Shown: positions 14,894 through 39,771 of the stretch, piece by piece
Layout of the letters: each line of letters starts with the position of its first letter
How positions within the stretch are numbered: the stretch's first letter is position 1
NCBI GenBank assembly: GCA_045568995.1
Contig: JBJKZY010000024.1
Span: 26,518 to 90,517, forward strand
Direction of reading: 5' to 3'
Source: Fidelibacterota bacterium
GTDB taxonomy: Bacteria; Fidelibacterota; Marinisomatia; Marinisomatales; UBA1611
Length of the DNA: 64,000 nucleotides
Position numbers and translations under genes: made by a program
The notes under the pieces: generated by a model
The model's database searches: none
Told to the model about the DNA's origin: nothing
The model's input: the letters and a program-made list of their open reading frames with translations, nothing else

Positions 14894-17800
14894 TTATATA
14901 TTGTTATTAAATAAAAATTTTTCATGAATCTGAAATTCAATTTGGTTTACACTACCATCTCTATCAAAAACGGAAGAACTCCTTTTTTGATCAATAAGAT
15001 TTCCTTCTATTTTTACTTTGGAGTTATCCTTGAAAATTAAATTAATATGAGAATCCGTTTCGGATAGAGTGTATACTATAGGTACTTGGCAAAAAGTATA
15101 TGCTAGTTGCTTTTCAAGAATCTCCAGAGATCTTTTTGTTTTTGAAATATCAAAATAGGTAAATATTTTTTTTTGTGATAGGAATTCTTCTCTTAGTAAT
15201 AGAGATGTGTCAAACATTATGCATCCGTTTTGAACAAAGCATCCAAGTTCTCCAAACCTTGTCAAAATTTCTTCTTTGACTTGCCCCGTCATTCCCGGCT
15301 GTTGCGCTCCTGAATGTGATGGAGTGTGTGAGTACGGATCAAAAGGAAATGCTCCATATTCTTTTGGAGTTTTAGCTGCACTTAAACCATCTCTTATTTT
15401 ATAATAATAGTAACCTAAGCTTTGAATAATATTATTTTCAGAAGATTCGTTGTTTTTTGCTGAAAAGAATTTTTCTTGTGTAGCTAATAGTAATTTTGAG
15501 ATCATATGCCAATAGATTGATCCAATTCCTTCATAAGAAAACATTGTTCCAGATCTTCCTGTGAAATTTCTATGATTAAAAACAAGTTCATAAATTTTTG
15601 ATATGTATTCTAATTCTTCTTCGAATGATATATCTTCAGTCTTTGATTTGGGTAATTGTTTTAGTGCATAAAATAAATCAGATGTGTTTCGAAATTTGGG
15701 GTTAAAACGGAAATTCCCATCAAAGTCCTTTTCCACAATTAATGTATTTTTTTGATCAACCATTTTACTTAACAAAACACTTTTTTTAAGGTGTTCTGGT
15801 TCTATGATGTTTTTCTTTAGGAAAGGAGTAATCTCTTTTTCAGGATATAAAATAAAACTTTTCATATCCGCACGGTAGAGGCTGCTGGAAAAAAGTGATT
15901 TTAGAGTTGAAGCACTATTAAATGAATTTTGTGATTGGCAACTTAGCCCAGCTACTTGACCCTCTAGCATAAGGTCTAGCTTTTGTATATCTATAGATTG
16001 ATTTTTCGAATTAATATTTATTGTGTTATAGGCATCAAATAACCCATTATCTTTACGGTTATCAAGTATAGTTTCATTAAGATGATTACAGATTTTTGAG
16101 AGGAAATTTTCTATTTTATTTAAAGATAATTTTTCAAAAGTGCTAAACCCTGAAGAGTATATTTTTTCCCTGTAATTTTCAAATATTTTTCCTAATCCAG
16201 ATACATAATTCATTCTTTCTTTGTCAGAGCATGTAGTATGATTTATGTTTTTGTTTTCGGTTACTTCTGCATCTACTTCATTGAACCACAATAATACTTC
16301 ATAAGAAACATTAATATTTTTAGCTTTGATTTGATGGATAAGCTCTTTGAAAAAGTCAAGAAATCTTTTTAGATAATACACAGTTACCATCGAGCATCCA
16401 TTCCCAACTAATGCATTGTTTGCATCATTCCACTCAGGTCGTTGAGTATTGAGCCATATTCCTGCTCCTGGAACATAATTGCAAATTTTTGCTAGAGATA
16501 ACACGAGAATTTTTTCACATAAGTTTACGTGATAAATCTCTTTGTCTTTAGTAAGTAATAGTCTACCATCAGATCCTAGTTCATCAACTAAATCCATAAT
16601 TTTATCATGACATTCAAAATCAAAGTCAATCGTTTCTTTAGGGTTTTTCGCCATCTCTTTAAAACTTTTTATTTTGTAAGGAATATTTGCGTAGCTGAAA
16701 ATTGCATCGCCAAATAATTGTTCTAATCTTTTTGGATTAGTGTCATTTAAATGTTCTAGTAATTTTAAAAGATAAATAATCTGATGGTCGTTCCAGTATC
16801 CAATATGACTCCAAGAATCATCAGGCTCTATTACTTCCCAATCAATTCCGTAGCTTGTAATTCTGTAAGGATTATAGCCATCAGCCGATGTTGCATTTAA
16901 AAATATAGATACCATTGACTCCCATGCATTAGGATAACTAAGGCCTAATGCTTCCCAATTTTGGAATATATCTCTCCAGTTTCCTTCAAAATAAAGTACT
17001 GGTTGATCATTTATATCCTTTGTTAGAATATTAAAATGATTCCATGGCCTGCTAGGATCTCCATGTCTTCTTCCTAGAGTAAGTGGAAGGTATTCTCTGC
17101 AAAGTCTCCTTATAGATGGTTTATTTAACTTGTCACCAAATTCTATAAGATCTTTAATGTTAAAAGAATTGGGGAGTTGGCTAATATTGGCTTGATAAGC
17201 TTTAAATGTCTTTTTACTTCTTTTTTGTAAGAATAGTTCAAAGCTATTTTTTTGTATGGTGTAGTTATCAAAAAATATTCCGCCCCTTAAAACATTGTAT
17301 GTAACATTCGCCGTATGGTGTAAATCATTTGTATTAATATTTGTACATTGAAATCCATCAGCCATTCCAATATTTTTTTCAAATGCATTATAATTATCTG
17401 CTAAACTTTTTTCTAGCTCTTCTTCAATACGATCATTGCCTTTTAAATTTAAAATAATTGCACTGATGTCAGATTGGGATTTTTGCACATCGGCAATGAT
17501 ATACCAGATTATTTCGTGATCAGGGAGCAAGGGTTTATGAATATAATTTAAGAAGCTACCCTCTTTGCCTTTTAGCAAATGATCTTTCTCAAAGTAATTG
17601 TTTGATAGAAATGTGCTAACAGATTTTTCATTAACTGAGAGTTCAATATTTTCATTAGAGGATGACCAAACAATATTTGAAAACAGTGACTCGCCAGGGT
17701 CCGGCTTATCCATTAGCAATGCGTTCATGTAATATAGTGCATAATTATAATCTGAATTACCTTCGGATACTTTATATGCATTTGCAAGGTTACTCATTTC

Positions 17801-18301
17801 CTGTTGTGTTCTAAGGCCTACTCCAGCAGGAAGAATATTTCTTAAACCGTCAATTAGCTTAATATATAATTCTTTACCACTATGGTTTAACAACTTCGTC
17901 TTTTTAACAAAACCGTATTTTGTGGATGCTTGCCAGCTATAAAGAAATGTGAGTCCTAGAGTATGGTTGATTTCTTCAAAGACTATTTTATTACCTAAGC
18001 TATTTTTATAAAGGTTCTGATTTTTTTTATAATTATCAATTTGATCTGAGAAAGGCTGCCAAGAGTAATTTTTATTATCTACATCAATGGAAATGCATGT
18101 TATTGGACCAGTGAAATGTGCATTCTTATGTAATAAATCATCTGTCACATAAGGAAATAAAGCATGCTCAGCTTTTTGTCTTCCCGCACTTAAACATCCC
18201 GAACTACTAAGGTACATCCAGTGGTTGTCAGCACTTGTGATCGACATGAGGAAAGGATCAATATCTTTAAAATTTGATATTTTATACAGCTTATCTTTCA
18301 T
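14894..18301 (-). CDS. Large cytoplasmic GH94-clan-like protein; candidate beta-1,3-glucan (laminari-oligosaccharide) phosphorylase, GH149/GH161-like
   Basis: 1135 aa with no signal peptide, encoded in one operon with GH1 and GH30. The segment GIWLNTQRPEWNDANNAL resembles the (D/E)WND catalytic-Asp motif of GH94-type phosphorylases. RRHGDPSRPWNHF looks like a phosphate/sugar-binding segment. Size fits bacterial GH149/GH161 members. Family assignment is from memory and has not been searched. Confidence 0.45.
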   Translation of the reverse strand: MKDKLYKISNFKDIDPFLMSITSADNHWMYLSSSGCLSAGRQKAEHALFPYVTDDLLHKNAHFTGPITCISIDVDNKNYSWQPFSDQIDNYKKNQNLYKNSLGNKIVFEEINHTLGLTFLYSWQASTKYGFVKKTKLLNHSGKELYIKLIDGLRNILPAGVGLRTQQEMSNLANAYKVSEGNSDYNYALYYMNALLMDKPDPGESLFSNIVWSSSNENIELSVNEKSVSTFLSNNYFEKDHLLKGKEGSFLNYIHKPLLPDHEIIWYIIADVQKSQSDISAIILNLKGNDRIEEELEKSLADNYNAFEKNIGMADGFQCTNINTNDLHHTANVTYNVLRGGIFFDNYTIQKNSFELFLQKRSKKTFKAYQANISQLPNSFNIKDLIEFGDKLNKPSIRRLCREYLPLTLGRRHGDPSRPWNHFNILTKDINDQPVLYFEGNWRDIFQNWEALGLSYPNAWESMVSIFLNATSADGYNPYRITSYGIDWEVIEPDDSWSHIGYWNDHQIIYLLKLLEHLNDTNPKRLEQLFGDAIFSYANIPYKIKSFKEMAKNPKETIDFDFECHDKIMDLVDELGSDGRLLLTKDKEIYHVNLCEKILVLSLAKICNYVPGAGIWLNTQRPEWNDANNALVGNGCSMVTVYYLKRFLDFFKELIHQIKAKNINVSYEVLLWFNEVDAEVTENKNINHTTCSDKERMNYVSGLGKIFENYREKIYSSGFSTFEKLSLNKIENFLSKICNHLNETILDNRKDNGLFDAYNTININSKNQSIDIQKLDLMLEGQVAGLSCQSQNSFNSASTLKSLFSSSLYRADMKSFILYPEKEITPFLKKNIIEPEHLKKSVLLSKMVDQKNTLIVEKDFDGNFRFNPKFRNTSDLFYALKQLPKSKTEDISFEEELEYISKIYELVFNHRNFTGRSGTMFSYEGIGSIYWHMISKLLLATQEKFFSAKNNESSENNIIQSLGYYYYKIRDGLSAAKTPKEYGAFPFDPYSHTPSHSGAQQPGMTGQVKEEILTRFGELGCFVQNGCIMFDTSLLLREEFLSQKKIFTYFDISKTKRSLEILEKQLAYTFCQVPIVYTLSETDSHINLIFKDNSKVKIEGNLIDQKRSSSVFDRDGSVNQIEFQIHEKFLFNNNI

Positions 18302-26257: not shown

Positions 26258-27553
26258 TCAGGTTGCCACATTGCTATTTTTAGAATACACTCTTACATAG
26301 TCTATTTCCATTCTAGATGGAAACACGCTATCATCTATTCCCTTAGCACCGCCCCAATTCCCTCCAACTGCAATGTTAAAAAGCAGATGAAACCTTTTGT
26401 CAAATGGCCATTTTGCCCATTTTTTGTCTTGCTTTGGATAATGCAAGGAAACTTTATCATTTACAATAATCTTAATTTCATCTTCAGTCCACTCTAATAT
26501 ATAATTATTAAACTGCTCACATGACTTTGGTTGTTTAAGATATCCGTGTTGATCTGTTCCTCCAATATTGCCAGCAGAAAGCGCAGCATTATGAAGGCTT
26601 GTAACTATTACGTCTTCATCATAACCAACATGTTCCATAATGTCAATTTCACCGCTCAATGGCCAATTCCCATATTCCCAATCCGTAGGTAATGCCCACA
26701 GGGCACTCCATGTTCCCTTACCAGGAGGAAGCTTTGCTCGAATTTCAAACCTCCCATATTTCCAACTGTTTTTTGTTTTTATTCGCGAGCTGGTATATTT
26801 AGATCCTTTGTAGGACTCTTTATGGGATTCAATAATTAATTTTCCGTTTTCAATCCTAACATTTTGAGGTCTATCTGTATAATACTGAGATTCATTATTT
26901 CCCCATCCACCACCAGTAACCCAGTTGATCTCTTTATCAATCCTGACTAAAGGAGGATCAATGGTTGATTGTTCCAGGTCTTTATTTTTAAAGTACGTAC
27001 CCTTTAGCCCTGGTTCTCCACTTGGTGCGGAAAGATGCGAGCTGGGCACTAATCTTTTTGAGAATCTTTCACTTTCCCATCCGAGAACCATTACCTCTCC
27101 TCCAGTCTGTTCAAAGTATTCAATTCGAATGGTATGTTTTTTATTTTTTCGTAAATTGATTACTCCTTTTCTTTCTGTTGCAGGTTGGGGTTTCCAGTTA
27201 TCAATTAAGATTTCATCATTAATAAATAGCCTTACCCCATCATCAGAAATAGTATGGAAAGTGTAGTCGGAGTCATAATCTATTTTGAGTTCTCCTTCCC
27301 AACGTACTGAAAAATTATCGGATGGAAAGTTTTCAGGTACGAAATGAGGAGAACTATAACCATATTCTTTAAAAGAAGGTGCACCTGTTCCTAGATCAAA
27401 AGTCCAATTTGATCTGTCAATTTTTTTATTTTCAAATTCATCCTGCCAAACAAGTTTCCAATCGACATTACTTGAGATGGGTTTTGTGGAGCATGAATAA
27501 AAAAGTATAATTATGCACGTAGAAGTAAAAGATCTGGTTACGTATTTAAACAA
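26258..27553 (-). CDS. GH16 laminarinase-type endo-beta-1,3-glucanase lipoprotein with a PA14 domain inserted into the catalytic jelly-roll
   Basis: Lipobox LFYSC. GH16 start WKLVWQDEF...WTFDLGTG, then PA14 (FSVRWEGELK...DDGVRLFINDE...IRIEYFEQTGG...GLKGTYF), then GH16 resumes at GGGWGNNESQYYT...GEIDIMEHVG (beta-bulge ExDxxE motif). Confidence 0.85.
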   Translation of the reverse strand: MFKYVTRSFTSTCIIILFYSCSTKPISSNVDWKLVWQDEFENKKIDRSNWTFDLGTGAPSFKEYGYSSPHFVPENFPSDNFSVRWEGELKIDYDSDYTFHTISDDGVRLFINDEILIDNWKPQPATERKGVINLRKNKKHTIRIEYFEQTGGEVMVLGWESERFSKRLVPSSHLSAPSGEPGLKGTYFKNKDLEQSTIDPPLVRIDKEINWVTGGGWGNNESQYYTDRPQNVRIENGKLIIESHKESYKGSKYTSSRIKTKNSWKYGRFEIRAKLPPGKGTWSALWALPTDWEYGNWPLSGEIDIMEHVGYDEDVIVTSLHNAALSAGNIGGTDQHGYLKQPKSCEQFNNYILEWTEDEIKIIVNDKVSLHYPKQDKKWAKWPFDKRFHLLFNIAVGGNWGGAKGIDDSVFPSRMEIDYVRVYSKNSNVAT

Positions 27554-27572
27554 AGTGATTTGAATATATATG

Positions 27573-28562
27573 CTAGTTTTGTGTGCTAGCTCTGATAATT
27601 ATTTCAACAGGAACCATAGAAAATTGTCTTATTATTTCATTGCTATCATTCACCATATTCTCAATTGTTCGTATTGCCCGCTTACCTAGAACATCAAAGT
27701 TGGTCGCAACAGAAGTAAGCTCTGGAGTAAAATTATCACAAAAGGATAGGTTGTCAAATCCTGCAATAATAAAATCTTCAGGGATTTTGTATTTAGCCTC
27801 TAAAGCCGATTTCATAAAGCCAAAACAAGTATGGTCATTACATCCAAAGATTGCCAGATTAGGGATGTTTTGATTTTTATAATCAGCGAATGCTGCTCTT
27901 CCAGATTCGCTGCTAAAATCCCCTTTGAATTCCCATGCAAGGTTAAGGTCTTGCTTTTCATTAATATGGTCGATAAAACCATTTTTTCGAAAAGCTGCAT
28001 CTATTGCGTCATGTGGGCCAGATATAATGCCAAAATTTTTATAGCCTTGCTCTTCAAAATGTTTTGCAATCATATAACCACCACTGTAAGAATCGAAGGA
28101 TACGGTGTCAATGGTAGGGTTTTTCATAGGAGTCAAAGATATAATTGGATATTTCCCAACACCTTTGCGGATACTTTTATAATCAATTTTTTCTAAGTTG
28201 GGTAAAAACAGACATATACCACTATACTTTTTACTAAGGTTAATGATATGCTGAACAGGATCATCGCTATGTTTTGCAAGGTTGACAAAAACAACATCCG
28301 ATTCAGAGTTCTTGCTGGAGTTATAAAACCCATTAAACAAGGATGAATAAAATTCGCCTTGGTGAACTTCTGTTACTAATGCTATAGTAAGTTGTTCACC
28401 TTCATTCAAATCACCAATAAAAGGATATCCAAGTTTTCTAGCTGAAGCGTAAATAATTTCTTCATTTTTAGAATATCTTCTTTTATTTCGGCGAAGAGCC
28501 CTTGAAACCGTAGCAATAGAAAGGCCAGTATCATCGGCTACTTGTTTTAGTGTTGTGCGCAA
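27573..28562 (-). CDS. LacI-family transcriptional regulator
   Basis: N-terminal HTH TLKQVADDTGLSIATVSRAL followed by a periplasmic-binding-protein-like sugar-sensor domain. Sits between the two divergent glycan operons. Confidence 0.85.
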   Translation of the reverse strand: MRTTLKQVADDTGLSIATVSRALRRNKRRYSKNEEIIYASARKLGYPFIGDLNEGEQLTIALVTEVHQGEFYSSLFNGFYNSSKNSESDVVFVNLAKHSDDPVQHIINLSKKYSGICLFLPNLEKIDYKSIRKGVGKYPIISLTPMKNPTIDTVSFDSYSGGYMIAKHFEEQGYKNFGIISGPHDAIDAAFRKNGFIDHINEKQDLNLAWEFKGDFSSESGRAAFADYKNQNIPNLAIFGCNDHTCFGFMKSALEAKYKIPEDFIIAGFDNLSFCDNFTPELTSVATNFDVLGKRAIRTIENMVNDSNEIIRQFSMVPVEIIIRASTQN

Positions 28563-28620
28563 GTATATATCTTTTAATTATTGGTGGAATACAATAAAAA
28601 AAGGTATTAAAGAAAAACAA

Positions 28621-28684
28621 TTATTGCAAATTTTTTTCATTAATTTGAAAAACTTTGAAAAAAGATTGCATTTTTTTGCAATAA
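28621..28684. promoter_or_regulatory. Candidate operator cluster: repeated TTGCAA/ATTGCA half-sites in the divergent promoter region
   Basis: TTATTGCAAA (28621-28630) is the exact reverse complement of TTTGCAATAA (28675-28684). A local palindrome ATTGCA-TTTTTT-TGCAAT lies at 28665-28682. A further TGCAAT is at 28772-28777. TGCAA-type half-sites are typical of LacI-family operators, but the spacing here is atypical. Confidence 0.25.
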
Positions 28685-28799
28685 TGAACTATTTTTGTAT
28701 AGTTGGAAAAATAATATGTGATTCCAATCAAATGTTTAGAGATGCAAATTTTGTAATATTAATAAAATCTCTGCAATACAATAATAAGGAGCAATTACA

Positions 28800-31700
28800 A
28801 TGAATAAATGGATAACAACATTCATTTTCGTTCTTTTACCTGCCATGTCATTTAGCCAGGTAATAAACAATTTTGATACAGAGCTAGAAGCTGATTATTT
28901 TGGCACGGAAAACTCTGATGCCGCAGATCCTACTCTAAGTAATACAACGGTAACTACCGTATCTCCTGGTTACAATAGTCCTGGTGCTATTCAGGTAGAT
29001 TACAGTGTTCATAACAGTGAAAGTTGGGGTGGGTATACTAAATTATACCATTACGCTAACCCATTTGGTGATGACGCAGGTTCTCCTTTAGAAGGAACTT
29101 GGATGTTGGCGCCAACAGCAGGGGCATTGAGAGTTGGTCCTGAGGCAGGTAGTGGAGAGTGGTGGTCAAATTCTGAAGAGGATGTTACCAATAGAGCCTG
29201 TGTCTTTGATGATCACTACGTCTTCAACGCAGATGGATCTTTTCAAAATGTTCAAGGTGAGGAGACTTGGTTAGAGCCATGGCAAGGATCTGATCCAGAA
29301 GCATGTGGTGCTCCAGTAGCTCCTCACAACGGGTCGAATCCTGCTACCTGGGAGTACAATGACGCCTCAGGAGAAGTTACTTTAACAGGATTGGGTGCAT
29401 ATCTAGGATTGCCAAAAGCTGTAAATGCAGGGGAACTGAGTTCAGACAATCCTCCTCCTGTACCGGAGTCGGTAACTTATACAGCTACTTTGGAAGGTGA
29501 TATGATGACGCTTGTTATTGAATGTGGTACCGGAGTTTTTTGGACGTTTACATTAATGTCACAGGCTCAGGATACACCTCTATCGGGTAGTTGGATGTTA
29601 TCTCCTGAAGCAGGGGCTTTACAGGTTGGACCTGCTGCAGGTAGTGGAGAGTGGTGGTCTATTTCGGAAGAAGATGTAATAAATAGATCTTGTCTTTTTG
29701 ATGATCGCTATGTTTTAAACGCAGATGGTTCGTTTCAAAATGTGCAAGGAGATCAAACATGGCTTGAACCTTGGCAGGGATCGGATCCGGAAGCATGCGG
29801 TGCACCTCTAGCACCTCATGATGGTTCGAATCCGGCAACGTGGGAATACGACGCTGTATCAGGAGAAGTTACTCTGACAGGGTTAGGAGCATATTTGGGT
29901 CTTCCTAAAGCTGTAAATGCAGGGGAACTGAGTTCAGACAATCCTCCTCCTGTACCGGAGTCGGTAACTTATACAGCTACTTTGGAAGGTGATATGATGA
30001 CGCTTGTTATTGAATGTGGTACAGGCGTGTTTTGGACATTTAAGTTAGTTCCCTCCCAAACTAGAGTTGCCGTTGCAGATTTTTCTGATGATATTTTCCA
30101 TTCTTTATTGGAAATGAGGCCTAGAGATGGACATGGTCCTTGGGATTGGTCTGGATACGATAGCCTTTCATTTTCTTACAACAATACACTTGCTCAGTGT
30201 GACAACAATGGTAACTGTGGTGATGCGGCGCCAGATCGTGTGCATTTAAGGCTAAACTTAAGTGACTATGCTGGTATTGCAGATCCTTTAAATTACACAG
30301 GCTTAGGTGAATATTTTTACTCCTTCCACTACATAATGGATACGGAGCCAGGTTGGAATACAGTTACCATTCCGTTGGTAAATAATTATAGTAGTAATGG
30401 AGATGGATTTAATTTGACTGGATGGGCTGGTGAATCGGATAATGGTGAATTGGATAAGCATGCTATAGGAGGCTTCCATTTTGAATTTTCTATAAGTGGA
30501 GGTGGAGATGGTGACTATGCATTTGGGACCATTATTTTTGATGAATTTCAATTGACAGGATCTCTAAATCAGTTGACCAACCCAGGGTTTGAACTTCCTG
30601 ACATGCAGGATGATGGTATGGGATGGGGTTCTGCTTTAGGTGGAGGATATGCTGATGTCGTAATGGATCCTTCCATGGCCCATAGTGGCGATAGCTACCT
30701 CAGTATTGGTGTTACGGACAACTGGGCTGTATACTATAATGAAGATACTGTGGCAGCGCAATTTGGGGAAACATGGAGATTGAGTGGCTATGGTAAAAAA
30801 ATGTTAGGTGATGATGTCGATGGAGCAGCATTTAAACTTGAAGGAAAAGATGCAGATGGTACTGTTCTTGGTACTACAGGCGATGTATTCCTACCTATAA
30901 CAGAGGAATGGGGAGAACACTCTATTGAATTTGTTATGCCAGAAGGAACAGAAACAGTCACAGCAGTCATTGTTGTTTCCAGATGGGATGGAGTAGAAGT
31001 TAACTACGCCTTTGATGATATGTTTTTAATGAGTATGGGTGTTTTAGATGTGATTCCGCCTCTTGCTGTTGAAGATATTGGAGCAGTCCCGGCAACAAAC
31101 TATAACCTAGTGACATGGTCAGATAATGCTGGTGAAGATGAAGAGACATACAATGTGTATGCGAGTACATCTCCAATTGAAGATCTTTCAGATCCTTCTG
31201 TTGATGTCGTTGCTGTTGGTGTTTTAGAGGGAAGTCAAGCTGCTGTGCACTATCTTTTTCATCCTTTGGAAGATACAGATGTAACCTATTATTATGCTGT
31301 CGTTTGTAAAGACGCATCCAATAATGTTGGTCCTCCAGGAACTTCTGCGAGCTCAATTACAAATACAGCTAAGGGTGTTCCGACTATTTCTCTTACCCCT
31401 CCATCTTCCTTTGCTGCGGATGGAGACTTAACGGAATGGTATGACAGTGGAATTGAACCTTTTATGATTGGGGCTACTGAAAACTCTTACGGTACTCCAA
31501 ATGTTGGAATGGGAACTGTGGATGATGATAATGATTTGCATGGTACTTTTTATGTAGCTGTTGATAATGATTATTTATACATCGCTGCAGAGGTGCTAGA
31601 TAATATAGTTGTTAATGATCAAACTAGTGGATGGTGGACTTCAGATGTTGTTCAAGTTTGTTTAGGTCTTTATGATCAGAGGGGTCCTAAACATGTTGGG

Positions 31701-32342
31701 ATGCAAAGAGGTGAACAGCCAGACTACAAAATGTATTTCCTCCCAGAGGGTGCCTATTCTGATAATGGTGCAGGCACTTTGGCTGAGCAGGGAGATGGTA
31801 ATTATTTCTATGAAACATATAACCCTGACTATGCGTTTGAGTTTCGTATTTCTTTGGATGATATCTTAATTGATGATGATGTTAGACTTACACCAGCTAA
31901 TGGGATGAGGACTCCATTTGAGCCAATGATTCATGACAATGATGGAGATGGTTGGGAGGGTCAATTAGTCCTTTCGGCAACCAATGATGATATGGCGCAC
32001 CAAACTTGTGAGGTCTGGTCTTCTACATGGCTTGGAGATCAAGCTACTATGGTAAGCACCGATGACGATATTGTGGTAAATGAGTTTGCTTTACATCAGA
32101 ACTATCCAAACCCATTTAATCCTCAGACAACGATCAAGTTTTCACTTCCTGAAGCACAGAGAGTTAACTTGTCTGTCTATAATATGATTGGTCAACAGGT
32201 GTTAACACTTGTTGATCAAGAGTTGCCAGCGGGTTATCATACTGCTAAGTGGTATGCCGGTAATATTGCATCGGGTGTATATATTTACAGATTAACATCC
32301 AATGGAAAATCGTTGACTCAGAAAATGCTATTGATGAAATAG
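28800..32342 (+). CDS. Surface glycan-binding protein: two tandem copies of a 164-aa Trp-rich module, a CBM4/9-like domain, an FN3-like domain, a CBM9/DOMON-like domain and a T9SS CTD
   Basis: 1180 aa with a signal peptide and an AAGGAG RBS. Repeated module ...GTWMLAPTAGALRVGPEAGSGEWWS...DDHYVFNADGSFQNVQGEETWLEPWQG.... CBM4/9-like NPGFELPD...HSGDSYLSI...YAFDDMFL. CBM9-like ADGDLTEW...DLHGTFYVAVDNDYLYIAAEV. CTD YPNPFNPQTTIKFSL...GVYIYRL...MLLMK. No catalytic motif recognised. Confidence 0.6.
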   Translation: MNKWITTFIFVLLPAMSFSQVINNFDTELEADYFGTENSDAADPTLSNTTVTTVSPGYNSPGAIQVDYSVHNSESWGGYTKLYHYANPFGDDAGSPLEGTWMLAPTAGALRVGPEAGSGEWWSNSEEDVTNRACVFDDHYVFNADGSFQNVQGEETWLEPWQGSDPEACGAPVAPHNGSNPATWEYNDASGEVTLTGLGAYLGLPKAVNAGELSSDNPPPVPESVTYTATLEGDMMTLVIECGTGVFWTFTLMSQAQDTPLSGSWMLSPEAGALQVGPAAGSGEWWSISEEDVINRSCLFDDRYVLNADGSFQNVQGDQTWLEPWQGSDPEACGAPLAPHDGSNPATWEYDAVSGEVTLTGLGAYLGLPKAVNAGELSSDNPPPVPESVTYTATLEGDMMTLVIECGTGVFWTFKLVPSQTRVAVADFSDDIFHSLLEMRPRDGHGPWDWSGYDSLSFSYNNTLAQCDNNGNCGDAAPDRVHLRLNLSDYAGIADPLNYTGLGEYFYSFHYIMDTEPGWNTVTIPLVNNYSSNGDGFNLTGWAGESDNGELDKHAIGGFHFEFSISGGGDGDYAFGTIIFDEFQLTGSLNQLTNPGFELPDMQDDGMGWGSALGGGYADVVMDPSMAHSGDSYLSIGVTDNWAVYYNEDTVAAQFGETWRLSGYGKKMLGDDVDGAAFKLEGKDADGTVLGTTGDVFLPITEEWGEHSIEFVMPEGTETVTAVIVVSRWDGVEVNYAFDDMFLMSMGVLDVIPPLAVEDIGAVPATNYNLVTWSDNAGEDEETYNVYASTSPIEDLSDPSVDVVAVGVLEGSQAAVHYLFHPLEDTDVTYYYAVVCKDASNNVGPPGTSASSITNTAKGVPTISLTPPSSFAADGDLTEWYDSGIEPFMIGATENSYGTPNVGMGTVDDDNDLHGTFYVAVDNDYLYIAAEVLDNIVVNDQTSGWWTSDVVQVCLGLYDQRGPKHVGMQRGEQPDYKMYFLPEGAYSDNGAGTLAEQGDGNYFYETYNPDYAFEFRISLDDILIDDDVRLTPANGMRTPFEPMIHDNDGDGWEGQLVLSATNDDMAHQTCEVWSSTWLGDQATMVSTDDDIVVNEFALHQNYPNPFNPQTTIKFSLPEAQRVNLSVYNMIGQQVLTLVDQELPAGYHTAKWYAGNIASGVYIYRLTSNGKSLTQKMLLMK
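29082..30065 (+). repeat. Intragenic tandem duplication (2 x 492 nt) with a 116-nt perfectly identical core
   Basis: W101 and W265 are homologous positions, giving a 164-aa period. nt 29415-29530 and 29907-30022 are identical base for base, while the rest of the repeat carries many synonymous differences. Confidence 0.85.
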
Positions 32343-32454: not shown

Positions 32455-35235
32455 ATGCTAAGATACCTGAGCTTTATTTTATTTGTTTCCTTGTCTTTTT
32501 CTCAAACTACAGGAAAAATTTCTGGTTTTGTGAATGATAAAGAAAAGGGAGATGCTCTTCCTGGAGCTAATATATATATAGTTAATTCTTCTTACGGTAC
32601 TGCTTCGGATGGTGATGGCAGATTTACTATTATCAATATACCTCCAGGAAAATATACCGTAAAAGTAGATATGATTGGATACAAGTCTGTTCAATTGGAT
32701 GAACTTATAGTTTCCGTAAATCGAACTACTTCACTTGATATTGAAATGGAGTCTACGGTTATTGAAGGAGAGGTTGTCACGGTTGAAGTCTCTCGATTGA
32801 CTCAGAAAAAAGATCAAACTGGTACGATAAAAAACATATCTAGCGAAGAGATAGACGCTCTTCCCGTAGAGAATATTGGCAGTGTAATTAATATGCAGGC
32901 AGGCGTTGTAAATGGTCACTTTCGAGGTGGTAGAAATACCGAAGTAACTTACATGGTTGACGGTGTGCAGGTAGATGAATCTTTTGGGGGAGGGAGTGCA
33001 GCTGTTGATATTCAGCCAGAAGCAGTACAAGACTTAGAAGTTATTACGGGTACTTTTAATGCAGAATATGGTCGTGCAATGAGCGGAGTCGTAAATATGG
33101 TTACTCGAGATGGAGGTCCAAGGTTTGAAGGATCCATATCTGCTGCTTCATCTTCTTTTTTTACTAATAGCAAAGATAGCAATGGGGATGATGTTTTTAT
33201 AGGGTTGTCTCCAGGCCTGAACCGTAGCGAAGATTTAAAGCTTAGCTTTGGCGGACCAATTTTGGGAGATAAGATTACCTTTTTTACTAACATTAGAAAA
33301 CAGGATAATCAAGGACACTTAAATGGGTTAAGGCGTTTTAAACCGTATGACATAAGTGACTTTACTTCCGATGAGCCTGAAGATTGGTTTTCAACTAGCT
33401 CAGGTGATAGTTCCTACGTGCCTATGAATACAGGAGACAACTTTTCTTCACTTTTGAAATTAGGATTTAATATTTTTAAAGGGATAAGATTTTCATTTCT
33501 CAATTCTTATAGCGATGATACTTGGTATTGGTATGATCATTCAATGAAGTATAATCCAGATGGTAGAGTAGGTAGCCATAAAGAAACTTTTTATTCTGCT
33601 TTTCAATTAAATCATATGATTACCCCAAAGCTTTTTTATGAACTTAAGCTAGCATATATGGAAAACAAGACAGGTACTTATTTGCATGAAGATCCATTTG
33701 CTTTTATTATCGCTGACGGCTCTAATTATGATCAGCTTTTTGATACAGGGTATGGTTCTATCCCTATTTATCATGACGGTTTACCACACGAAGAAGGCGA
33801 TACTGTATATCTTTATATTCATGATAGACATCTTGAAAATTATGGATCAGGATTTTTTACGGGTGGACAGCAGAAGGAAAATACAAAACACAGAGACCTA
33901 GACCGAACTGTTAAATTTGATTTGACATGGCAAGCAAATCACAATCATAGTTTTAAACTTGGACTGATGGGCATTACTCATAACGTAAATCATAAATGGC
34001 AAACCATACGGAATAAGTATGATGGTCAATCCAATATTGATTTTCTTCTTTATAAACCAGAAGTATTTGGAGATTCTACTGTATATGCTGACATTTATAA
34101 TGTAAAACCGAAAGAAGCGGCCGCATATTTACAAGATAAGATGGAATTCGAAAACATGGTTATTAATTTTGGTTTACGATATGATTATTTTGATCCTGCT
34201 AGCTATTACCCATCAGATAGTAGAAACCCTGCAAATCAATTAGTTCTCCCTGACTCGATGATGTCTGAACAGGTATCTGCTCCGGTGATTGATCAAATAA
34301 GTCCTCGGGTTGGCTTTGCATATCAACTTGGCAATCAAGCAGTTCTTCATTTTAGTTATGGGCACTTTTTTCAAATGCCTCCATTATATTCTATGTATCA
34401 GAACAAAAGCTTTTTAGTGGCTCCAAGCGACTATTCTACTACAATGGGTAGTGTTCTTCTTGAGCCTGAAAAAACAATTACATATGAGATAGGTCTGTGG
34501 CAAGAATTAACCCGTGGCTTAAATCTCGATGTTGCATTGTTTTATAGAGATATATACAATTTATTGAGCACAAAAATTATTTCAACCTATAACCAAATTG
34601 AATACGGCTTGTATAGCAATAAAGACTATGGTAATGCGCGAGGTTTAGAGGTTACATTGGATCTTGGATATGGTGCTCTTAAAGGGATGGCAAACTATAC
34701 CTTGCAGTATACAAGAGGGAATGCCGATAACCCCACTCAAACATTTGATAGAGCAGGTAATAACATGGACCCTGTTAATCGTTTCATTCCGATGAGTTGG
34801 GATCAGAGACATACTTTAAATGGTACTATGATGTTCCTTGGTGCTAAATATGGAGGAACTGTAACTGCTTACTATAATTCAGGTTCACCATATACTTTTT
34901 CACCACAAAGTGAAAGTGTTTTATCCAGGATAAATCTTTACCCCAATAATGATTATAAACCTTCAACGTATACAGTTGATGCCACTCTCTATTATAATTT
35001 TAAATTGTTCGATCGTTTTACTGGAAAAGTTGATCTTACTATTTATAATCTTCTTGATAGATTAAATGAAAATGGTGTGGATAGTGAGACTGGACGTGCT
35101 TACACAGCCGTTATTAGACAAACAGACTATGCTGGTCACAGAAGCGATTTCAATGAGTTTGAAGATAGAATAAAAAACCCATCGATGTTCTCCTCGCCAA
35201 GAATGATGAAGCTTGCTGTTGGGATAAATTTTTAG
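32455..35235 (+). CDS. TonB-dependent outer-membrane transporter with a CarboxypepD_reg-like N-terminal domain (SusC-like, but no SusD partner)
   Basis: 926 aa with a signal peptide. GKISGFVNDKEKGDALPGANIYI...GRFTIINIPPGKYTVKVDMIGYKS. Plug region (...DALPVENIGSVINMQAGV...TYMVDGVQV). Long beta-barrel ending ...KLAVGINF (terminal Phe). Confidence 0.85.
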   Translation: MLRYLSFILFVSLSFSQTTGKISGFVNDKEKGDALPGANIYIVNSSYGTASDGDGRFTIINIPPGKYTVKVDMIGYKSVQLDELIVSVNRTTSLDIEMESTVIEGEVVTVEVSRLTQKKDQTGTIKNISSEEIDALPVENIGSVINMQAGVVNGHFRGGRNTEVTYMVDGVQVDESFGGGSAAVDIQPEAVQDLEVITGTFNAEYGRAMSGVVNMVTRDGGPRFEGSISAASSSFFTNSKDSNGDDVFIGLSPGLNRSEDLKLSFGGPILGDKITFFTNIRKQDNQGHLNGLRRFKPYDISDFTSDEPEDWFSTSSGDSSYVPMNTGDNFSSLLKLGFNIFKGIRFSFLNSYSDDTWYWYDHSMKYNPDGRVGSHKETFYSAFQLNHMITPKLFYELKLAYMENKTGTYLHEDPFAFIIADGSNYDQLFDTGYGSIPIYHDGLPHEEGDTVYLYIHDRHLENYGSGFFTGGQQKENTKHRDLDRTVKFDLTWQANHNHSFKLGLMGITHNVNHKWQTIRNKYDGQSNIDFLLYKPEVFGDSTVYADIYNVKPKEAAAYLQDKMEFENMVINFGLRYDYFDPASYYPSDSRNPANQLVLPDSMMSEQVSAPVIDQISPRVGFAYQLGNQAVLHFSYGHFFQMPPLYSMYQNKSFLVAPSDYSTTMGSVLLEPEKTITYEIGLWQELTRGLNLDVALFYRDIYNLLSTKIISTYNQIEYGLYSNKDYGNARGLEVTLDLGYGALKGMANYTLQYTRGNADNPTQTFDRAGNNMDPVNRFIPMSWDQRHTLNGTMMFLGAKYGGTVTAYYNSGSPYTFSPQSESVLSRINLYPNNDYKPSTYTVDATLYYNFKLFDRFTGKVDLTIYNLLDRLNENGVDSETGRAYTAVIRQTDYAGHRSDFNEFEDRIKNPSMFSSPRMMKLAVGINF

Positions 35236-38200
35236 TGTCTTTCAGATCTTTTATAACCGTCTTTTCCATTTTATTTCTGGGTCTTGAATTTTCTTTTTCT
35301 CAGGGGAAGGAGTATGAAGGACCAGAAGATCCTGCTGGTGATATAGCTGCTGAAAAAGAAGGATATATGACCGGTAATAGAGTTTTTATTTATTTTCGTA
35401 ATACAACCGAACTTTCTGATTGGCCAAGGGTAAATGTATCAAAATGGCCTAACAATCCTGATGGGTTAAAAATGACGGATGGTATTGGGCTCATGATTGG
35501 AGCCAAAGTATACATAGAAGATGATGGAGACGAAAGTACTATTGATACTATACCTATGACAGATCTTCTAGATTTAATAAATCCAAATAATAATAGGCAT
35601 ACCCTTCACTATTTACAAACAAGCTACAGAGAAGAAATGGATCTTGACCCAACGGGAACGGTTGAATGGGGTTTCTATCCGGTCTTTGGATACTTTAATG
35701 AAACAGGTGAATATCCAGGGTTATCCAATTTGCCAAGTTCGTGGCCGATCAACGGGTGGCCTTCAACAGGTCTAGAAACAAAATGGCCTGGGGAGTGGAA
35801 TGGAAGATTTGGGCGCGGAGTCACGTATGCGGACCAAGAATCTTATTATGTTGTAAATGATGCTCAGGACCAAGAGAATTTAGGCTCAGAAGATAAGGTT
35901 AGATATTATCCAAGACCTGGACATTCCATTGGTGATTTAAAGTCAGACGTTACGATTCAACCAGGATCTCCATGGGGAGGACTTGGTTTACGAGTTTCTG
36001 TGAGAGGGTTCCAGTGGAACAATCCGCAAGCTAGAGATGCAATATTTTGGGAATATTCGGTTGCCAATGTTTCAGATTATGATTTGAGAGATGTCGCTTT
36101 TGGTTATTGGTTGGATAACTCTATTGGTGGAGATGGAGATGATGATCTTGGTTTTTTTAATAAGCAAGAGGACATGGCCTATTCTTGGGACATTAATGGT
36201 ATTGGCGCTGGAGGATTGCCTACAGGAGTAATGGGTTTTGCCTATCTAGAGAGTCCTGGACTTGCCTATGATAATATTGATAATGATAACGATGGCTTGA
36301 TAGATGAAAAAAGAGATAATGAGGCAACTGCATTAATTGGACCAACGGATGGGATAACTGATTTAAACGCCTTTTTAGATTTTTATAAACTGAATGTAGA
36401 AGATTTGAAAGAGCATTGGGACGCAGATGAGGATCAAGATTGGGAAGATGGTGATGATGCAAATGGGGATGGTATTTATCAAATATCAGAAGATTACGGT
36501 GACGACATAGGTGTTGACGGAGTAGGACCTGGCGAATTAAACTACACTGGACCGGATGCTGATGGAAGTGAGGGAAACCATCGTCCAGATTTTGTTGAAG
36601 GTGTAGGCTGTGAGCCGAACTTTAATACAACAGATGTGTCAGAGTCAGATATGGTAGGTCTTACTACATTTCGTATGTTTCCAATTCCAAGTCACGCTCC
36701 GTCTAACGAGACAACATGGTTTAAAAATGATGAAGCAATGTGGGGTCTTATTGGAGTGGATTCGCTAGAAGAATATCTTGATAATGTCTCCAATTTAGTT
36801 GAGGTCTTTGCTTCAGGACCTTTTCCTTTATATCAGGGTCGCGTTGAGAGAATCTCTATGTCCGAGCTTCACTCATATGATCCACTAGAAGGGTTAAGCT
36901 CGGATGATCATACCGCACCAGCTTTATATGAGTTAAAAAGAATCGTTCAGGTCATTTATGAAAAAGATTATAGGTTTGCTCAGCCTCCTAAAATGCCAAC
37001 GCTTACCGCTACTGCTGGAGATAGTAAGGTTGTACTTACTTGGGATGATGTGGCTGATACAAAAACAAGAGATCCCTTTGTTGGAAATATCAATGATTTC
37101 GAGGGATATAAAGTATATAGAAGCACAGACAAATACATGTCCGATCCTGAAATTATTACCGATGGATATGGAACTCCAATGTTTAAGAAGCCTATATACC
37201 AATGTGATTTAGTGGATGATATCTCTGGATTTACAGATTTTGGTTTGGTAAATGGAGCCGGTTATAATCTGGGTGCAGAGACTGGAATCACTCATATTTT
37301 TGTAGATAATACCGTTCAAAATGGTAGGACTTATTATTACGCTGTTGTTGCTTATGATTTTGGTGCTCCAAATATCGGGCCAGGTATTGCACCTTCAGAA
37401 AATAATGCAGTTATTGAACTAGGTGAAGCAGAAGAAATTCGATCTGTTGGTAAGAATGTTGCGGTGGTTACTCCGCATCAACGAGCTGCTGGTTATATTC
37501 CACCAACCATAGAGCTAGAAGAAAATGAATTGCTGGGAACAGGGCGAATAGATCCTTTAATACGTGCTCAGGGTAGTCTGAAACAAAATCATCAGTATGG
37601 TATAACCTTTGAAGTGGATACAATTGCTGAAATTGGTGGTTACGAATTTGGTTTTCAGTACGTTACAAATGGCGTAAAAATATTTGATGAAACAGATAGT
37701 ACTGTTTTGGTGTACTCAGAGGATACTTCAAAATATGTGGGACAAAATTTAGTTTTTAAAGATACTGCAAATTATTGGACATTAAATACTACAGAGCCAG
37801 TTTTAACGGATGTTTTTGATGGTCTACAAGTAGAAATTGACCAAGGAGTAGAGTTTCCAAAATATAGTTATGAAGGATCTGGATGGATTAATGGTTCTGG
37901 TATCATGAGAATTACTCCAACTAATATTGAAGCACTAAGACTTGCCTGGAAATATAATATTGTATTCACAGATGAAGATTCTGCTTATGTAGGCATCGCT
38001 AGATCAGGAACGGTAAGAGATGAAACAGGCTCTTCAATTGGTTCAAATAAGATTACCGAACCAGCGGTGAATTTTTACGTCCAAAATACTTCCTTTATTG
38101 ATACTGCTACTGGACAATATCCTTTGATGGATGTTGTTGTACATGATGTGAATAATAATGATACATTAGAAATTGGTATAGATAGATTTTTTATTGGGGC

Positions 38201-38705
38201 TACGGTTGGCTCCAGATGGCGTGCAACTGCTTTTGTAATGGATTTTCAATTGGATGCTGGTGCTAGTTACCCTTCAGGAGAAGCTGTATATCAAGTAAAT
38301 TGGGAGCGCCCATTTTTTATGACGGATACTGTTCGATTTACCGTTGGTGCGGAAAGTGCGATGGAAAGTTCTGTTGCTCTATCAGATTTGGACAGCATTA
38401 AGGTAGTTCCCAATCCGTATGTTATGACCAATATGATGGAATCAGCTGTTTCAAACCCATTTTTAAATCAGCGTAGAAAAATCATGTTTACTCATATTCC
38501 CGCAAATTGTAAAATTAAAATTTTCACAGTCAGCGGTGTCTTAGTGGATGAGATCGCGGTTCAAAATGAACCTAGTAATGGTATCATTCATTGGGACATG
38601 CTAACAAGAGAGAACCTTGAAATAGCTGCTGGCATGTACATTTACCATATTGATGCTCCAGAGATTGGTAAGGAAAAAGTTGGAAAATTTGCGGTGATCA
38701 AATGA
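35235..38705 (+). CDS. Large exported protein of unknown function: Asp-rich Ca-binding-like cluster, FN3-like domain, C-terminal T9SS-CTD-like beta-sandwich
   Basis: 1156 aa. GTG start overlaps the TBDT stop (TAGTG). Signal peptide. DNIDNDNDGLIDEKRDN and DADEDQDWEDGDDANGDG...DDIGVDGVGPGE lie at about nt 36117-36645. FN3-like PKMPTLTATAGDSKVVLTWDD...FEGYKVYRS. C-terminus VVPNPYV...KIKIFTVSGVLVDEI...AAGMYIYHI...KFAVIK. Confidence 0.5.
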   Translation: MSFRSFITVFSILFLGLEFSFSQGKEYEGPEDPAGDIAAEKEGYMTGNRVFIYFRNTTELSDWPRVNVSKWPNNPDGLKMTDGIGLMIGAKVYIEDDGDESTIDTIPMTDLLDLINPNNNRHTLHYLQTSYREEMDLDPTGTVEWGFYPVFGYFNETGEYPGLSNLPSSWPINGWPSTGLETKWPGEWNGRFGRGVTYADQESYYVVNDAQDQENLGSEDKVRYYPRPGHSIGDLKSDVTIQPGSPWGGLGLRVSVRGFQWNNPQARDAIFWEYSVANVSDYDLRDVAFGYWLDNSIGGDGDDDLGFFNKQEDMAYSWDINGIGAGGLPTGVMGFAYLESPGLAYDNIDNDNDGLIDEKRDNEATALIGPTDGITDLNAFLDFYKLNVEDLKEHWDADEDQDWEDGDDANGDGIYQISEDYGDDIGVDGVGPGELNYTGPDADGSEGNHRPDFVEGVGCEPNFNTTDVSESDMVGLTTFRMFPIPSHAPSNETTWFKNDEAMWGLIGVDSLEEYLDNVSNLVEVFASGPFPLYQGRVERISMSELHSYDPLEGLSSDDHTAPALYELKRIVQVIYEKDYRFAQPPKMPTLTATAGDSKVVLTWDDVADTKTRDPFVGNINDFEGYKVYRSTDKYMSDPEIITDGYGTPMFKKPIYQCDLVDDISGFTDFGLVNGAGYNLGAETGITHIFVDNTVQNGRTYYYAVVAYDFGAPNIGPGIAPSENNAVIELGEAEEIRSVGKNVAVVTPHQRAAGYIPPTIELEENELLGTGRIDPLIRAQGSLKQNHQYGITFEVDTIAEIGGYEFGFQYVTNGVKIFDETDSTVLVYSEDTSKYVGQNLVFKDTANYWTLNTTEPVLTDVFDGLQVEIDQGVEFPKYSYEGSGWINGSGIMRITPTNIEALRLAWKYNIVFTDEDSAYVGIARSGTVRDETGSSIGSNKITEPAVNFYVQNTSFIDTATGQYPLMDVVVHDVNNNDTLEIGIDRFFIGATVGSRWRATAFVMDFQLDAGASYPSGEAVYQVNWERPFFMTDTVRFTVGAESAMESSVALSDLDSIKVVPNPYVMTNMMESAVSNPFLNQRRKIMFTHIPANCKIKIFTVSGVLVDEIAVQNEPSNGIIHWDMLTRENLEIAAGMYIYHIDAPEIGKEKVGKFAVIK

Positions 38706-39771
38706 TTTATATGTTTCGAAAAACATTTTGTTTGTTTCTTTTATTTAACCTGGTTTTGTTAAACGCTCAAACTATAAATCGATACGGTACTACAGCAGCT
38801 AATTTTTTAGAAATAGGAGTGGGGAGTAGAGCAACTGCAATGGGAGATGCTTACGTAGCAGTTGCAAATGACGTCTCTTCAATCTATTGGAACCCTGCTG
38901 GTTTATCTCACGTTTCAAATACTTCTGGTCTTTTCATGATTCAACCTTGGCTTGTAGATATTGATATGTTATTTGCAGGGGGTGCTTTTGTAGTCCCCAA
39001 TATTGGTGTCTTAGGCCTTGGTATTACCCATCTTGATTATGGAGAAATGGATGTAACTAACTTAGAATACCAAGATGGAACCGGCGAAAGATTTGGTGCT
39101 TCAGATATTGCAGCGAGTTTAACCTTTTCAAGAAAAATAGTATCCTGGTTTTCCTTTGGAACTACGATGAAATATATTAGCTCTAATATATGGCATAGTT
39201 CCGCAAGTGCATTTGCTCTTGACTTAGGTGTTTTAGTCAAAACGGATTTCTTTTCTTTTACCGGGCAAGAAAAAGATGGAATGAATATTGGGATGAGTAT
39301 TTCAAACTATGGTACCAGGATGAAATATGATGGGATAGAAATTATCAGCCAATAGATATTTCAGAGTATGAAGAGGGTAATTATGGAGATGTTTCAGGTC
39401 AATTCAGAACTTCTGAATGGGAGCTTCCTCTTATTTTTCGAATTGGAGTTGCATTAAAACCTATTGTAACTAATGTAATAAACCTTACAGTCTCTGCAGA
39501 TGCGCTTCACCCAAATAATAACGCAGAATCATTAAATCTGGGTGCAATCTTAAATAATAAAATTCCAGGATTTGGCGAAGTTAGTTTAGCAATGGGTGCA
39601 AAAAGTGGGATGAGTGGAATTATGAAGGATGGGAATGACGTCAGTCTGACCCTTGGAGTAGGTGCGAAATTATTTTACCTGGGCAATAAATCCCTTTCTA
39701 TTGATTATACCTATAAAGCTATGGGAATTTTAGGTAATGTGCAGATGTATACTGTTGGATTATCTTTCTAG
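38702..39771 (+). pseudogene. PorV/PorQ-family outer-membrane beta-barrel, split by a 1-nt frameshift (real or a sequencing error)
   Basis: The N-terminal fragment (track ORF 38702..39355) has RYGTTAANFLEIGVGSRATAMGDAYVAVANDVSSIYWNPAGL. The adjacent frame, open from 39331 to the TAG at 39769-39771, encodes ...YQPIDISEYEEGNYGDVSGQFRTSEWELPLIFRIGVA...HPNNNAESLNLG...YKAMGILGNVQMYTVGLSF (barrel C-terminal Phe). Adding one A to the GAAATT at about 39338-39343 would give a 356-aa protein. The ATGA overlaps the upstream stop. Confidence 0.6.

Follow-up and report, generated by a model that had tools for sequence, protein, structure and literature searches.

What do two tandem, tryptophan-rich modules at the start of a glycan operon capture, and why are they letter-for-letter identical over part of their length when the rest has diverged? 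The question is raised by a 64,000-nucleotide (nt) stretch of DNA from a Fidelibacterota bacterium (GTDB lineage Bacteria; Fidelibacterota; Marinisomatia; Marinisomatales; UBA1611; GenBank assembly GCA_045568995.1, contig JBJKZY010000024.1, forward-strand positions 26,518 to 90,517), hereafter the window, whose positions are counted from its first letter. An open reading frame (ORF) on the plus strand at 28800-32342 encodes a secreted, non-catalytic multi-module protein of 1180 amino acids (aa), as judged from the ORF call and Pfam/NCBIfam scans. Within it, two 164-aa units with seven tryptophans each stand back to back: copy 1 at 29082-29573 (aa 95-258; matched by the hidden Markov model (HMM) of the family at 29085-29564, 241 bits) and copy 2 at 29574-30065 (aa 259-422; 29577-30050, 233 bits), both on the plus strand. 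A reading made earlier from the letters alone (below, the sequence-only reading) had proposed these units as a candidate novel beta-glucan-binding module. We consider it likely that the gene encodes a surface protein whose barrels, related to the carbohydrate-binding module (CBM) family CBMyy, capture beta-1,3-glucan, that it belongs to a beta-glucan (laminarin) locus, and that its module pair combines an old duplication with a recent gene conversion. We take CBMyy to have become CAZy family CBM103, and CBMxx, a second family discussed below, presumably to be CBM102.

Ordinary sequence searches give the module no name. Searched alone, it produced no significant match to Pfam, NCBIfam or Protein Data Bank (PDB) sequences, including the families CBM_4_9, CBM9_1 and CBM_6. 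The Pfam HMM check yielded nothing above the cut-offs, and matches to Lipocalin_4 (E = 0.88) and FxDxF (E = 0.014) lay far below them. A PDB profile search with alignment A1 returned only matches to the tail of type IX secretion system (T9SS) cargo, since many members bear that tail. An AlphaFold2 model built on 46 sequences was confident (predicted local distance difference test (pLDDT) 95.3, predicted template modelling score 0.89), with about 13 strands and two short helices, and matches the beta-barrel with two extra helices that defines the CBMyy fold. In a Foldseek search of the PDB, 7KV7, 7KV6 and a second 7KV7 chain occupied ranks 1-3 (E = 3e-6, probability 1.0, TMq 0.63); these three chains of surface glycan-binding protein (SGBP) B alone reached E <= 0.001, the next match having E = 2.5e-3. 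The fold evidence comprises this predicted model and the one Foldseek search. The entries 7KV7 and 7KV6 show Bacteroides fluxus SGBP-B (BfSGBP-B) in complex with laminaritriose and with a mixed-linkage trisaccharide. The C-terminal beta-barrel of this protein, borne by a PKD domain, binds beta-1,3-glucan chains at their reducing end; its shallow binding platform is formed by W164, W165, K172, D221, E277 and N280 (PMC7974029). Zühlke et al. joined this barrel with a module of a Christiangramia forsetii glycoside hydrolase (GH) of subfamily GH16_3 as the new family CBMyy (10.1101/2023.09.07.556657).

Profile-profile comparison supports homology to CBMyy over the whole domain. Flavobacterial loci that encode the module also encode GH16_3 neighbours of 540-556 aa (Cf-GH16_3 has 538 aa), and the profile of their middle domain, A6, matches 7KV5 at E = 4e-13 and is therefore of CBMyy type. 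In hhalign the module family profile, A2, aligns with A6 at 96.5% probability (E = 8e-10, 137 columns) and with the 7KV5 barrel itself at 65% probability (E = 6e-5). The latter alignment sets W27-W28 of the module (EWWS) on the ligand-stacking W164-W165 of SGBP-B (SWWS). Besides this Trp-Trp pair, the module shares with CBMyy (7KV5, 7KV6, 7KV7; C. forsetii GH16_3, GFO_RS16360) the predicted barrel with two short helices, for which these entries are the best structural match in the PDB, and an N-terminal motif, TW...AG..GVGP...WW......DD.YVF..DG.F. Both also occur in PKD-plus-barrel proteins of about 270 aa, the architecture of BfSGBP-B, and both lie in beta-1,3-glucan utilisation loci.

Several results weigh against this reading or set the module apart from CBMyy. 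Neither phmmer nor hmmsearch against PDB sequences returns 7KV5, even at E <= 10; the relation goes undetected by HMMER, with identities of 16-27%, and the module's barrel has about 160 aa against about 190. Of the six residues with which BfSGBP-B contacts its ligand, the family as a whole keeps only the Trp pair, position 28 being conserved as an aromatic. The alignment pairs E277 with E147, which is Glu in only 32% of copies, and sets K172, D221 and N280 against positions that are not conserved, so that the module as a whole lacks conserved equivalents of K172, D221, E277 and N280. In their place it has an invariant set of its own (R38, D43, D44, E65, Q68, H82, K112, N115 and E118) and a Cys40-Cys75 pair; the invariant R38 lies two to three residues away from the K172 position. 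The binding mode, and even the ligand, could accordingly differ from those of BfSGBP-B. Some members are moreover fused to alpha-glucan modules (CBM48, CBM20, X25). The distribution differs as well: the module occurs in up to five tandem copies and also in Neomarinimicrobiota, Gammaproteobacteria and Lentisphaeria, whereas CBMyy has been reported as always single and restricted to Bacteroidota. On profile and predicted-structure evidence, then, the module is a distant, superfamily-level homologue of the CBMyy barrel and not a member by ordinary family criteria. The statement of the sequence-only reading that no named CBM family could be assigned thus stands for ordinary searches but not for profile comparison, which finds a distant relative of CBMyy/CBM103 type, and the word novel needs qualifying to that extent.

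The family is large. A word-indexed search returned 161 relatives, many of them proteins of about 270 aa in which one module is combined either with a signal peptide and a T9SS tail or with a PKD domain. The exhaustive profile search yielded 998 cluster representatives (50% identity) at E <= 0.001, 433 of them at E <= 1e-30; tandem arrays reach five copies, and the longest protein has 3895 aa. A scan of species-representative genomes found at least 599 stretches with the module. Among the matches listed, the best genome for the window is a metagenome-assembled genome of Candidatus Neomarinimicrobiota (Marinimicrobia/SAR406), at 89%, and we assign the window to that group. Neomarinimicrobiota, many Flavobacteriaceae, Saprospiraceae, Marinilabiliales, Porticoccaceae, Halieaceae and Lentisphaeria are among the matches listed, and five-copy proteins also occur in Woeseiaceae and Chromatiales. 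Public databases call the members "hypothetical protein" or "PKD domain-containing protein", and we found no characterisation of the family in the literature. Fusion partners include CBM4_9, CBM6, CBM9, CBM20, CBM48, PKD and GH16, two members being joined directly to GH16.

Conservation, computed over 319 distinct module copies, is 91-100% at W7, V18, G19, W27, R38, C40, D43, D44, G52, F54, T62, W63, E65, W67, Q68, C75, P81, H82, G103, G105, K112, N115, E118, Y133 and W154. Within this set R38, C40, D44, E65, Q68, C75, H82, K112, N115 and Y133 reach 95-100%, and Cys40 and Cys75 form the conserved pair. Position 27 is Trp in 92% of copies and position 28 aromatic in 99%. Both window copies keep the conserved family residues, with the exception of F48L in copy 2.

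"So far unclassified" CBMs, distantly related to CBM103, have been mentioned for BN863_RS18030 of Formosa agariphila, in a laminarin locus (10.64898/2026.01.10.698779). Their description, locus type and taxon fit the flavobacterial members of our family, and two loci from Formosa metagenome-assembled genomes (L068, L099) bear the module. These CBMs, uncharacterised in the preprint and matched to the module by description only, are probably the same family.

The company that the module keeps is that of beta-glucan utilisation. The neighbours in ten other module loci comprise 10 GH16, 8 TonB receptors, 6 SusD, 6 GH3, 6-7 PKD proteins and 5 Y_Y_Y regulators. In Flavobacteriaceae the gene order is regulator, SusC, SusD, a module protein of about 695 aa and GH16, which places the module in the SusE-positioned protein of laminarin loci; this protein has two immunoglobulin (Ig)-like domains, one beta-sandwich-like domain and two modules. 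We read the module as carbohydrate-binding because of the fold match, the homology to CBMyy, the beta-glucan loci and the fusions to CBMs and GH16, and its function is most likely the non-catalytic capture of beta-1,3-glucan at the cell surface. Under this proposal the 1180-aa protein would be exported by type IX secretion and held at the cell surface, where each barrel would bind the ends of beta-1,3-glucan chains, or short segments of them, on a platform of loops that takes in Trp27-Trp28. The two barrels, together with the CBM4_9-like and CBM9-like domains of the same protein, would provide multivalent laminarin capture, and two sites should raise avidity. Captured glycan would pass to surface GH16 endoglucanases and the adjacent TonB-dependent receptor, and GH30, GH1 and GH5 enzymes (periplasmic or cytoplasmic) and an ABC importer would complete its degradation. 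The role of the protein would thereby resemble that of SusE/F-type SGBPs in Bacteroidota.

A CBM with another ligand, such as the beta-1,6 branches of chrysolaminarin, mixed-linkage glucan or a further algal glycan, is an unlikely alternative but the most serious one for the function. In its favour, four of the six BfSGBP-B contacts are not conserved, and the invariant polar residues form a set peculiar to the family; two types of glucan are already ligands of CBMyy; alpha-glucan modules are fusion partners of some members; and the window locus contains GH30 and GH5. GH30 enzymes of laminarin loci are often beta-1,6-glucanases. Set against this are the steadiest neighbours of the module, namely GH16 (of the GH16_3 type and laminarinase-like in flavobacterial loci), GH3 and SusC/D, in the canonical order of a laminarin locus, and the two direct fusions to GH16. 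We judge it distinctly improbable that the module binds no glycan at all and is instead a binder of small molecules in the manner of lipocalins, a spacer with a structural role or an enzyme that has escaped recognition. The lower Foldseek matches are fatty-acid-binding proteins and a DUF4847 protein, Lipocalin_4 matches weakly (E = 0.88), and a site for catalysis or for a small ligand could be made up of the charged residues that are invariant (R, D, D, E, H, K, E); yet the fatty-acid-binding-protein matches have TM scores of 0.3-0.37 and root-mean-square deviations of 8-9 Å, and the module shows what is typical of CBMs: tandem arrays of up to five copies, fusions to CBMs and GH16, the SusE position and homology to a barrel whose crystal structure includes glucan.

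A third candidate was CBMxx, known from four repeats in a SusE-positioned laminarin SGBP of C. forsetii, whose fold is a two-sheet beta-sandwich bearing a deep cleft (10.1101/2023.09.07.556657) and close in structure to the 4BQ2 module. Like our module it forms tandem, non-catalytic, internally duplicated repeats downstream of SusD, of similar size (about 170 aa) and in up to 8 copies, is fused to CBM4, CBM6 and GH16_3, and extends beyond Bacteroidota. Its cleft-bearing sandwich (type B) differs from the barrel with two helices predicted for the module, however, and no similarity between the two was detected; the best matches of the module are to the 7KV7-type barrel and the CBMyy profile, and 4BQ2 is not among its best 50 Foldseek matches. 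With the barrel model and the absence of 4BQ2 from those 50 matches, we rejected membership in CBMxx (probably CAZy CBM102), which is now highly improbable. A separate upstream beta-sandwich-like domain of the flavobacterial SGBPs fits CBMxx better. This domain of about 165 aa (in L079:6828-8957, aa 225-390, and its equivalents), which ends in ...TVFIDNIYFWK, lies between the Ig-like domains and the two modules of the SusE-positioned proteins and may be of CBMxx type; phmmer of a flavobacterial SGBP against the PDB gave no match in a searched set in which the presence of the CBMxx crystal sequence is unconfirmed.

We return to the barrels related to CBMyy and to the identity between them. Tandem Repeats Finder places the repeat at 29117-30042, as 1.9 copies of a 492-nt period that match at 83% without indels, and a direct-repeat search aligns 29085-29384 with 29577-29876 at 76% identity. 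The consensus peptide quoted by the sequence-only reading is found in both 164-aa copies, and its exact core was reproduced in a base-by-base comparison at an offset of 492: a single identical run of 116 nt, 29415-29530 = 29907-30022, followed in length by runs of 23 and 15 nt. Upstream of this run, 62 of 111 codons differ (42 synonymously, 20 non-synonymously), with a pS of 0.735 (dS ~3, saturated) and a dN of 0.105, in agreement with the synonymous divergence that had been noted for the rest of the unit, and within it none of the 38 whole codons differs. The duplication is old, because the synonymous sites are saturated, and both copies are under purifying selection. When 104 mismatches were placed at random in 492 nt, none of 200,000 trials reached a run of at least 116 nt (longest 73, mean maximum 21).

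Comparison with orthologues from the metagenome scan, which comprised the two-copy genes L003-L007 and the one-copy genes L012, L014 and L017, shows a mosaic. Throughout the 5' two-thirds of the unit, position determines how the copies group (identity is 90% between window copy 1 and copy 1 of L004, and 86% between window copy 2 and copy 2 of L003), so the duplication predates lineages of the L003-L007 type. Within the core, identity between window copy 1 and copy 1 of L004 falls to 75%; there window copy 1 equals window copy 2 over all 116 nt and is 92-94% identical to L012 and L014. This core, of the copy-2 type with an SSDNPPP insertion, is 89-90% identical to the copy-2 orthologue L003_2. 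We scored copy 1 at the 155 sites that separate L004 copy 1 (orthologue) from window copy 2 (paralogue). It carries 26 consecutive orthologue-type sites ending at 29414, then 35 consecutive paralogue-type sites at 29423-29528, including a 9-nt indel (SSDNPPP vs PNVD), and orthologue-type sites again from 29537 (at least 5), so that the tract follows the paralogue and both flanks follow the orthologue. The recipient tract in copy 1, delimited by the exact identity and the 35 paralogue-type sites, spans 29415-29530, with breakpoints within 29415-29422 and 29529-29536; the donor tract in copy 2 spans 29907-30022, and its SSDNPPP-type core is common to L003_2, L012 and L014 (both tracts on the plus strand). 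A real and recent intragenic gene conversion, with copy 2 as donor and copy 1 as recipient, is strongly supported by this pattern. The tract encodes module residues 112-150, which include K112, N115, E118, Y133 and the variable loop SSDNPPPVPE (119-128), so that this part of the two predicted sites is identical.

The sequence-only reading had left open whether the core reflects gene conversion or assembly collapse; the mosaic argues for the former, and two other assemblies with the same structure argue against the latter. The identical 1180-aa protein occurs in ENA ERZ27286356 (contig k119_...) and on a TARA Oceans scaffold, each with two substitutions relative to the window in the gene and each with the identical core. 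The window and its relatives are short-read metagenome assemblies, and single-module versions exist (L012, L014, P0274) that a wrong path through a shared core could have yielded. An artefact of this kind, be it repeat collapse, bubble popping or a chimeric path, is nevertheless very unlikely. Three assemblies share both the two-copy structure and the core, and the k119_ contig names, which we take to mean k = 119, imply a word longer than the 116-nt tract. Collapse loses a copy and cannot make a mosaic, and bubble popping cannot turn an orthologue-type core of 75% identity with a 9-nt indel into the paralogue type; artefacts of this sort could at most hide a few differences. Nor are the single-module orthologues collapsed versions of the window sequence: they form lineages of their own, with about 81-85% identity in the 5' part. 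Conversion is therefore established as far as assemblies allow, with three of them in agreement. Short-read assemblers can merge near-identical repeats, which weighs against perfect identity in the true genome, where the tract may fall short of it; the mosaic itself is not explicable in this way. Extreme purifying selection or codon constraint would account for an identical segment that encodes the conserved K112, N115, E118 and Y133, but is barely credible here: nucleotide identity in the same segment is only 62-82% when orthologues, or the two copies within L003 and within L005, are compared, it contains the most variable loop of the module together with an indel, and 0 of 38 codons differ in the run against 62 of 111 upstream. 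Selection as the cause of the identity was rejected on this comparison with orthologues.

Similar conversions recur in other lineages of the module family. Identical tracts between tandem copies measure 251 nt in L040 (L040:7236-10793), 146 nt between copies 3 and 4 of L047 (L047:6498-9002), 77 nt in L007 and 56 nt in L004, the last in the same part of the unit as the window tract; none was found in two flavobacterial SGBPs (L079, L052). Intragenic gene conversion is known for tandem domain repeats of bacterial surface proteins. The window shares with such concerted evolution a short perfect tract in old, diverged repeats, sharp breakpoints, an identifiable donor and recipient, and recurrence; nothing about it is unusual in comparison, the tract being short and spanning a variable loop together with conserved residues.

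Further traces of exchange were seen around these units. A paralogue-type patch at 29289-29309 in copy 1 may be an older conversion. In 60-nt windows across 29232-29320 / 29724-29812, identity is 93-95% between copy 1 and L012 and 95-100% between copy 2 and L014, with much lower values elsewhere, which suggests recombination between strains besides intragenic conversion. One-module close orthologues (L012, L014 and L017; P0274, P0285, P0297 and others) are up to 90% identical and have 1006-1016 aa instead of 1180, and copy number therefore switches between one and two among related Neomarinimicrobiota. The unit of L012 looks like a mixture of copy 1 and copy 2, as unequal crossing-over would give.

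The 1180-aa protein, encoded throughout on the plus strand, consists in order of a signal peptide, an apparently split beta-sandwich with two inserted barrels, a CBM4_9-like domain, a CBM9-like domain and a T9SS C-terminal sorting domain. A putative Sec signal peptide (MNKWITTFIFVLLPAMSFSQ), recognised by reading the translation, is encoded at 28800-28859. It is followed by the N-terminal half (28860-29075; aa 21-92, 72 aa) of an interrupted beta-sandwich-like domain, whose C-terminal half (30066-30569; aa 423-590), itself lacking a Pfam match, comes after the modules; both halves were delimited by alignment to P0249 and P0156. A weak CBM4_9-like domain lies at 30567-30962 (aa 590-721; PF02018, E = 0.0012, 19.6 bits, below the cut-off of 25.9) and a CBM9-like domain at 31482-32024 (aa 895-1075; PF06452, E = 1.9e-8, above the cut-off), as the sequence-only reading had anticipated for CBM4/9- and CBM9-like domains, and the T9SS sorting domain lies at 32103-32327 (aa 1102-1176; PF18962, E = 8e-10; TIGR04183, E = 1e-11). 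Pfam and NCBIfam scans found no catalytic domain in the protein, and the family HMM found no module copies beyond the two in the 64-kb window.

Whole, the split domain has about 200 aa, interrupted by both modules. The equivalents of aa 21-92 and 423-590 are contiguous in P0249 and P0156, and the BLAST alignments to these two proteins, the sole basis of the split-domain reading, have their gap exactly at the insertion point; both barrels thus seem to be inserted in a loop of another beta-sandwich-like domain. The earlier description of the modules as leading the protein was accordingly imprecise, as a signal peptide and a 72-aa half-domain precede them. P0192 has the same split-domain arrangement with a single module. 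An AlphaFold2 model of aa 21-607 had a mean pLDDT of 49, on a shallow alignment of close orthologues; a Pfam scan of the joined halves gave only a sub-threshold match to SGBP_B_XBD (E = 0.066), and a phmmer search for contiguous versions of the domain gave only spurious extensions into the module.

The module gene does open the plus-strand half of the beta-glucan locus, in line with its earlier description as the start of the glycan operon: it follows a divergent LacI-family regulator (27573-28562, minus strand; Pfam Peripla_BP_3 and LacI) and adjoins a TonB-dependent receptor with a SusC-like N-terminal CarboxypepD_reg domain (32455-35235, plus strand; Pfam), the presumed uptake partner directly downstream. 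The minus strand encodes GH5, a 1135-aa protein without a Pfam match, GH30, GH1, an ABC transporter of the Opp type, a PA14-GH16 glucanase (26258-27553; Pfam) and LacI. On the plus strand the module gene and the receptor gene are succeeded by genes for a 1156-aa protein that also lacks a Pfam match, a PorV-like protein, two GH16 that bear T9SS tails, an M16 peptidase, a GH16 in which a CBM20-like region is weakly recognisable, and a GH5-CBM6 that has a T9SS tail. Within 32455-39355 no SusD gene follows the SusC-like receptor. The stop codon of the receptor gene overlaps the start of the gene for the 1156-aa protein, whose C-terminus resembles a sorting domain, and a 217-aa PorV-like gene comes next; this arrangement of receptor and 1156-aa protein may be an alternative to SusC/SusD pairing. 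The intergenic region between the LacI and module genes (28563-28799) is AT-rich and has repeated TTGCAA/TGCAAT motifs, with an imperfect palindrome, TGCAAATTTTTTTCA ... TGAAAAAAGATTGCA, at 28625-28670; motifs and palindrome may be operator sites.

Elsewhere in the window, a 578-aa ORF at 50288-52024 has odd Pfam matches to PB1 (E = 3e-13) and to a diatom pyrenoid shell protein, which are probably compositional. Further large proteins are encoded at 14894-18301 (minus strand, 1135 aa, the one without a Pfam match), 3062-6631 (minus strand, 1189 aa) and 6700-11310 (plus strand, 1536 aa); the C-termini of the latter two look like T9SS sorting domains. The window abounds in T9SS cargo, and no tRNA gene was detected in it.

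More doubtful, though a possibility worth stating, is a fuller proposal that joins these strands: the module would form a new CAZy CBM family, sister to CBM103 and with a site of its own, serving laminarin capture across the ocean with barrels inserted in a sandwich and sites kept matched by conversion. The site would then consist of Trp27/Trp28 with R38, D43/D44, E65, Q68, H82, K112, N115 and E118, and the family would be among the most widespread laminarin-capture modules of the ocean, spanning Bacteroidota, Neomarinimicrobiota, Gammaproteobacteria and Lentisphaeria. In Neomarinimicrobiota the T9SS-anchored protein would replace the SusD/SusE-type partners of the TonB receptor, and recurrent conversion over the loop near K112-E118 would keep the tandem sites matched.

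Laminarin is among the largest fluxes of fixed carbon in the sea, and because the flux is so large, capture proteins at bacterial surfaces affect who consumes it. Modules of this sort have already been noticed by the field, and the one described here is a divergent relative, as yet without a name, of a laminarin-binding family that was defined recently; its conversion tract is a clean, small case of concerted evolution in tandem binding-type modules, unsurprising in itself. The main value of the finding is a well-defined biochemical target, a lead for marine carbon-cycle biochemistry and not a new kind of system. A family without a Pfam, an NCBIfam or, apparently, a CAZy name is an annotation gap, and its characterisation would improve the annotation of marine metagenomes and would extend the concept of surface glycan-binding proteins to Neomarinimicrobiota and Gammaproteobacteria, which lack SusD.

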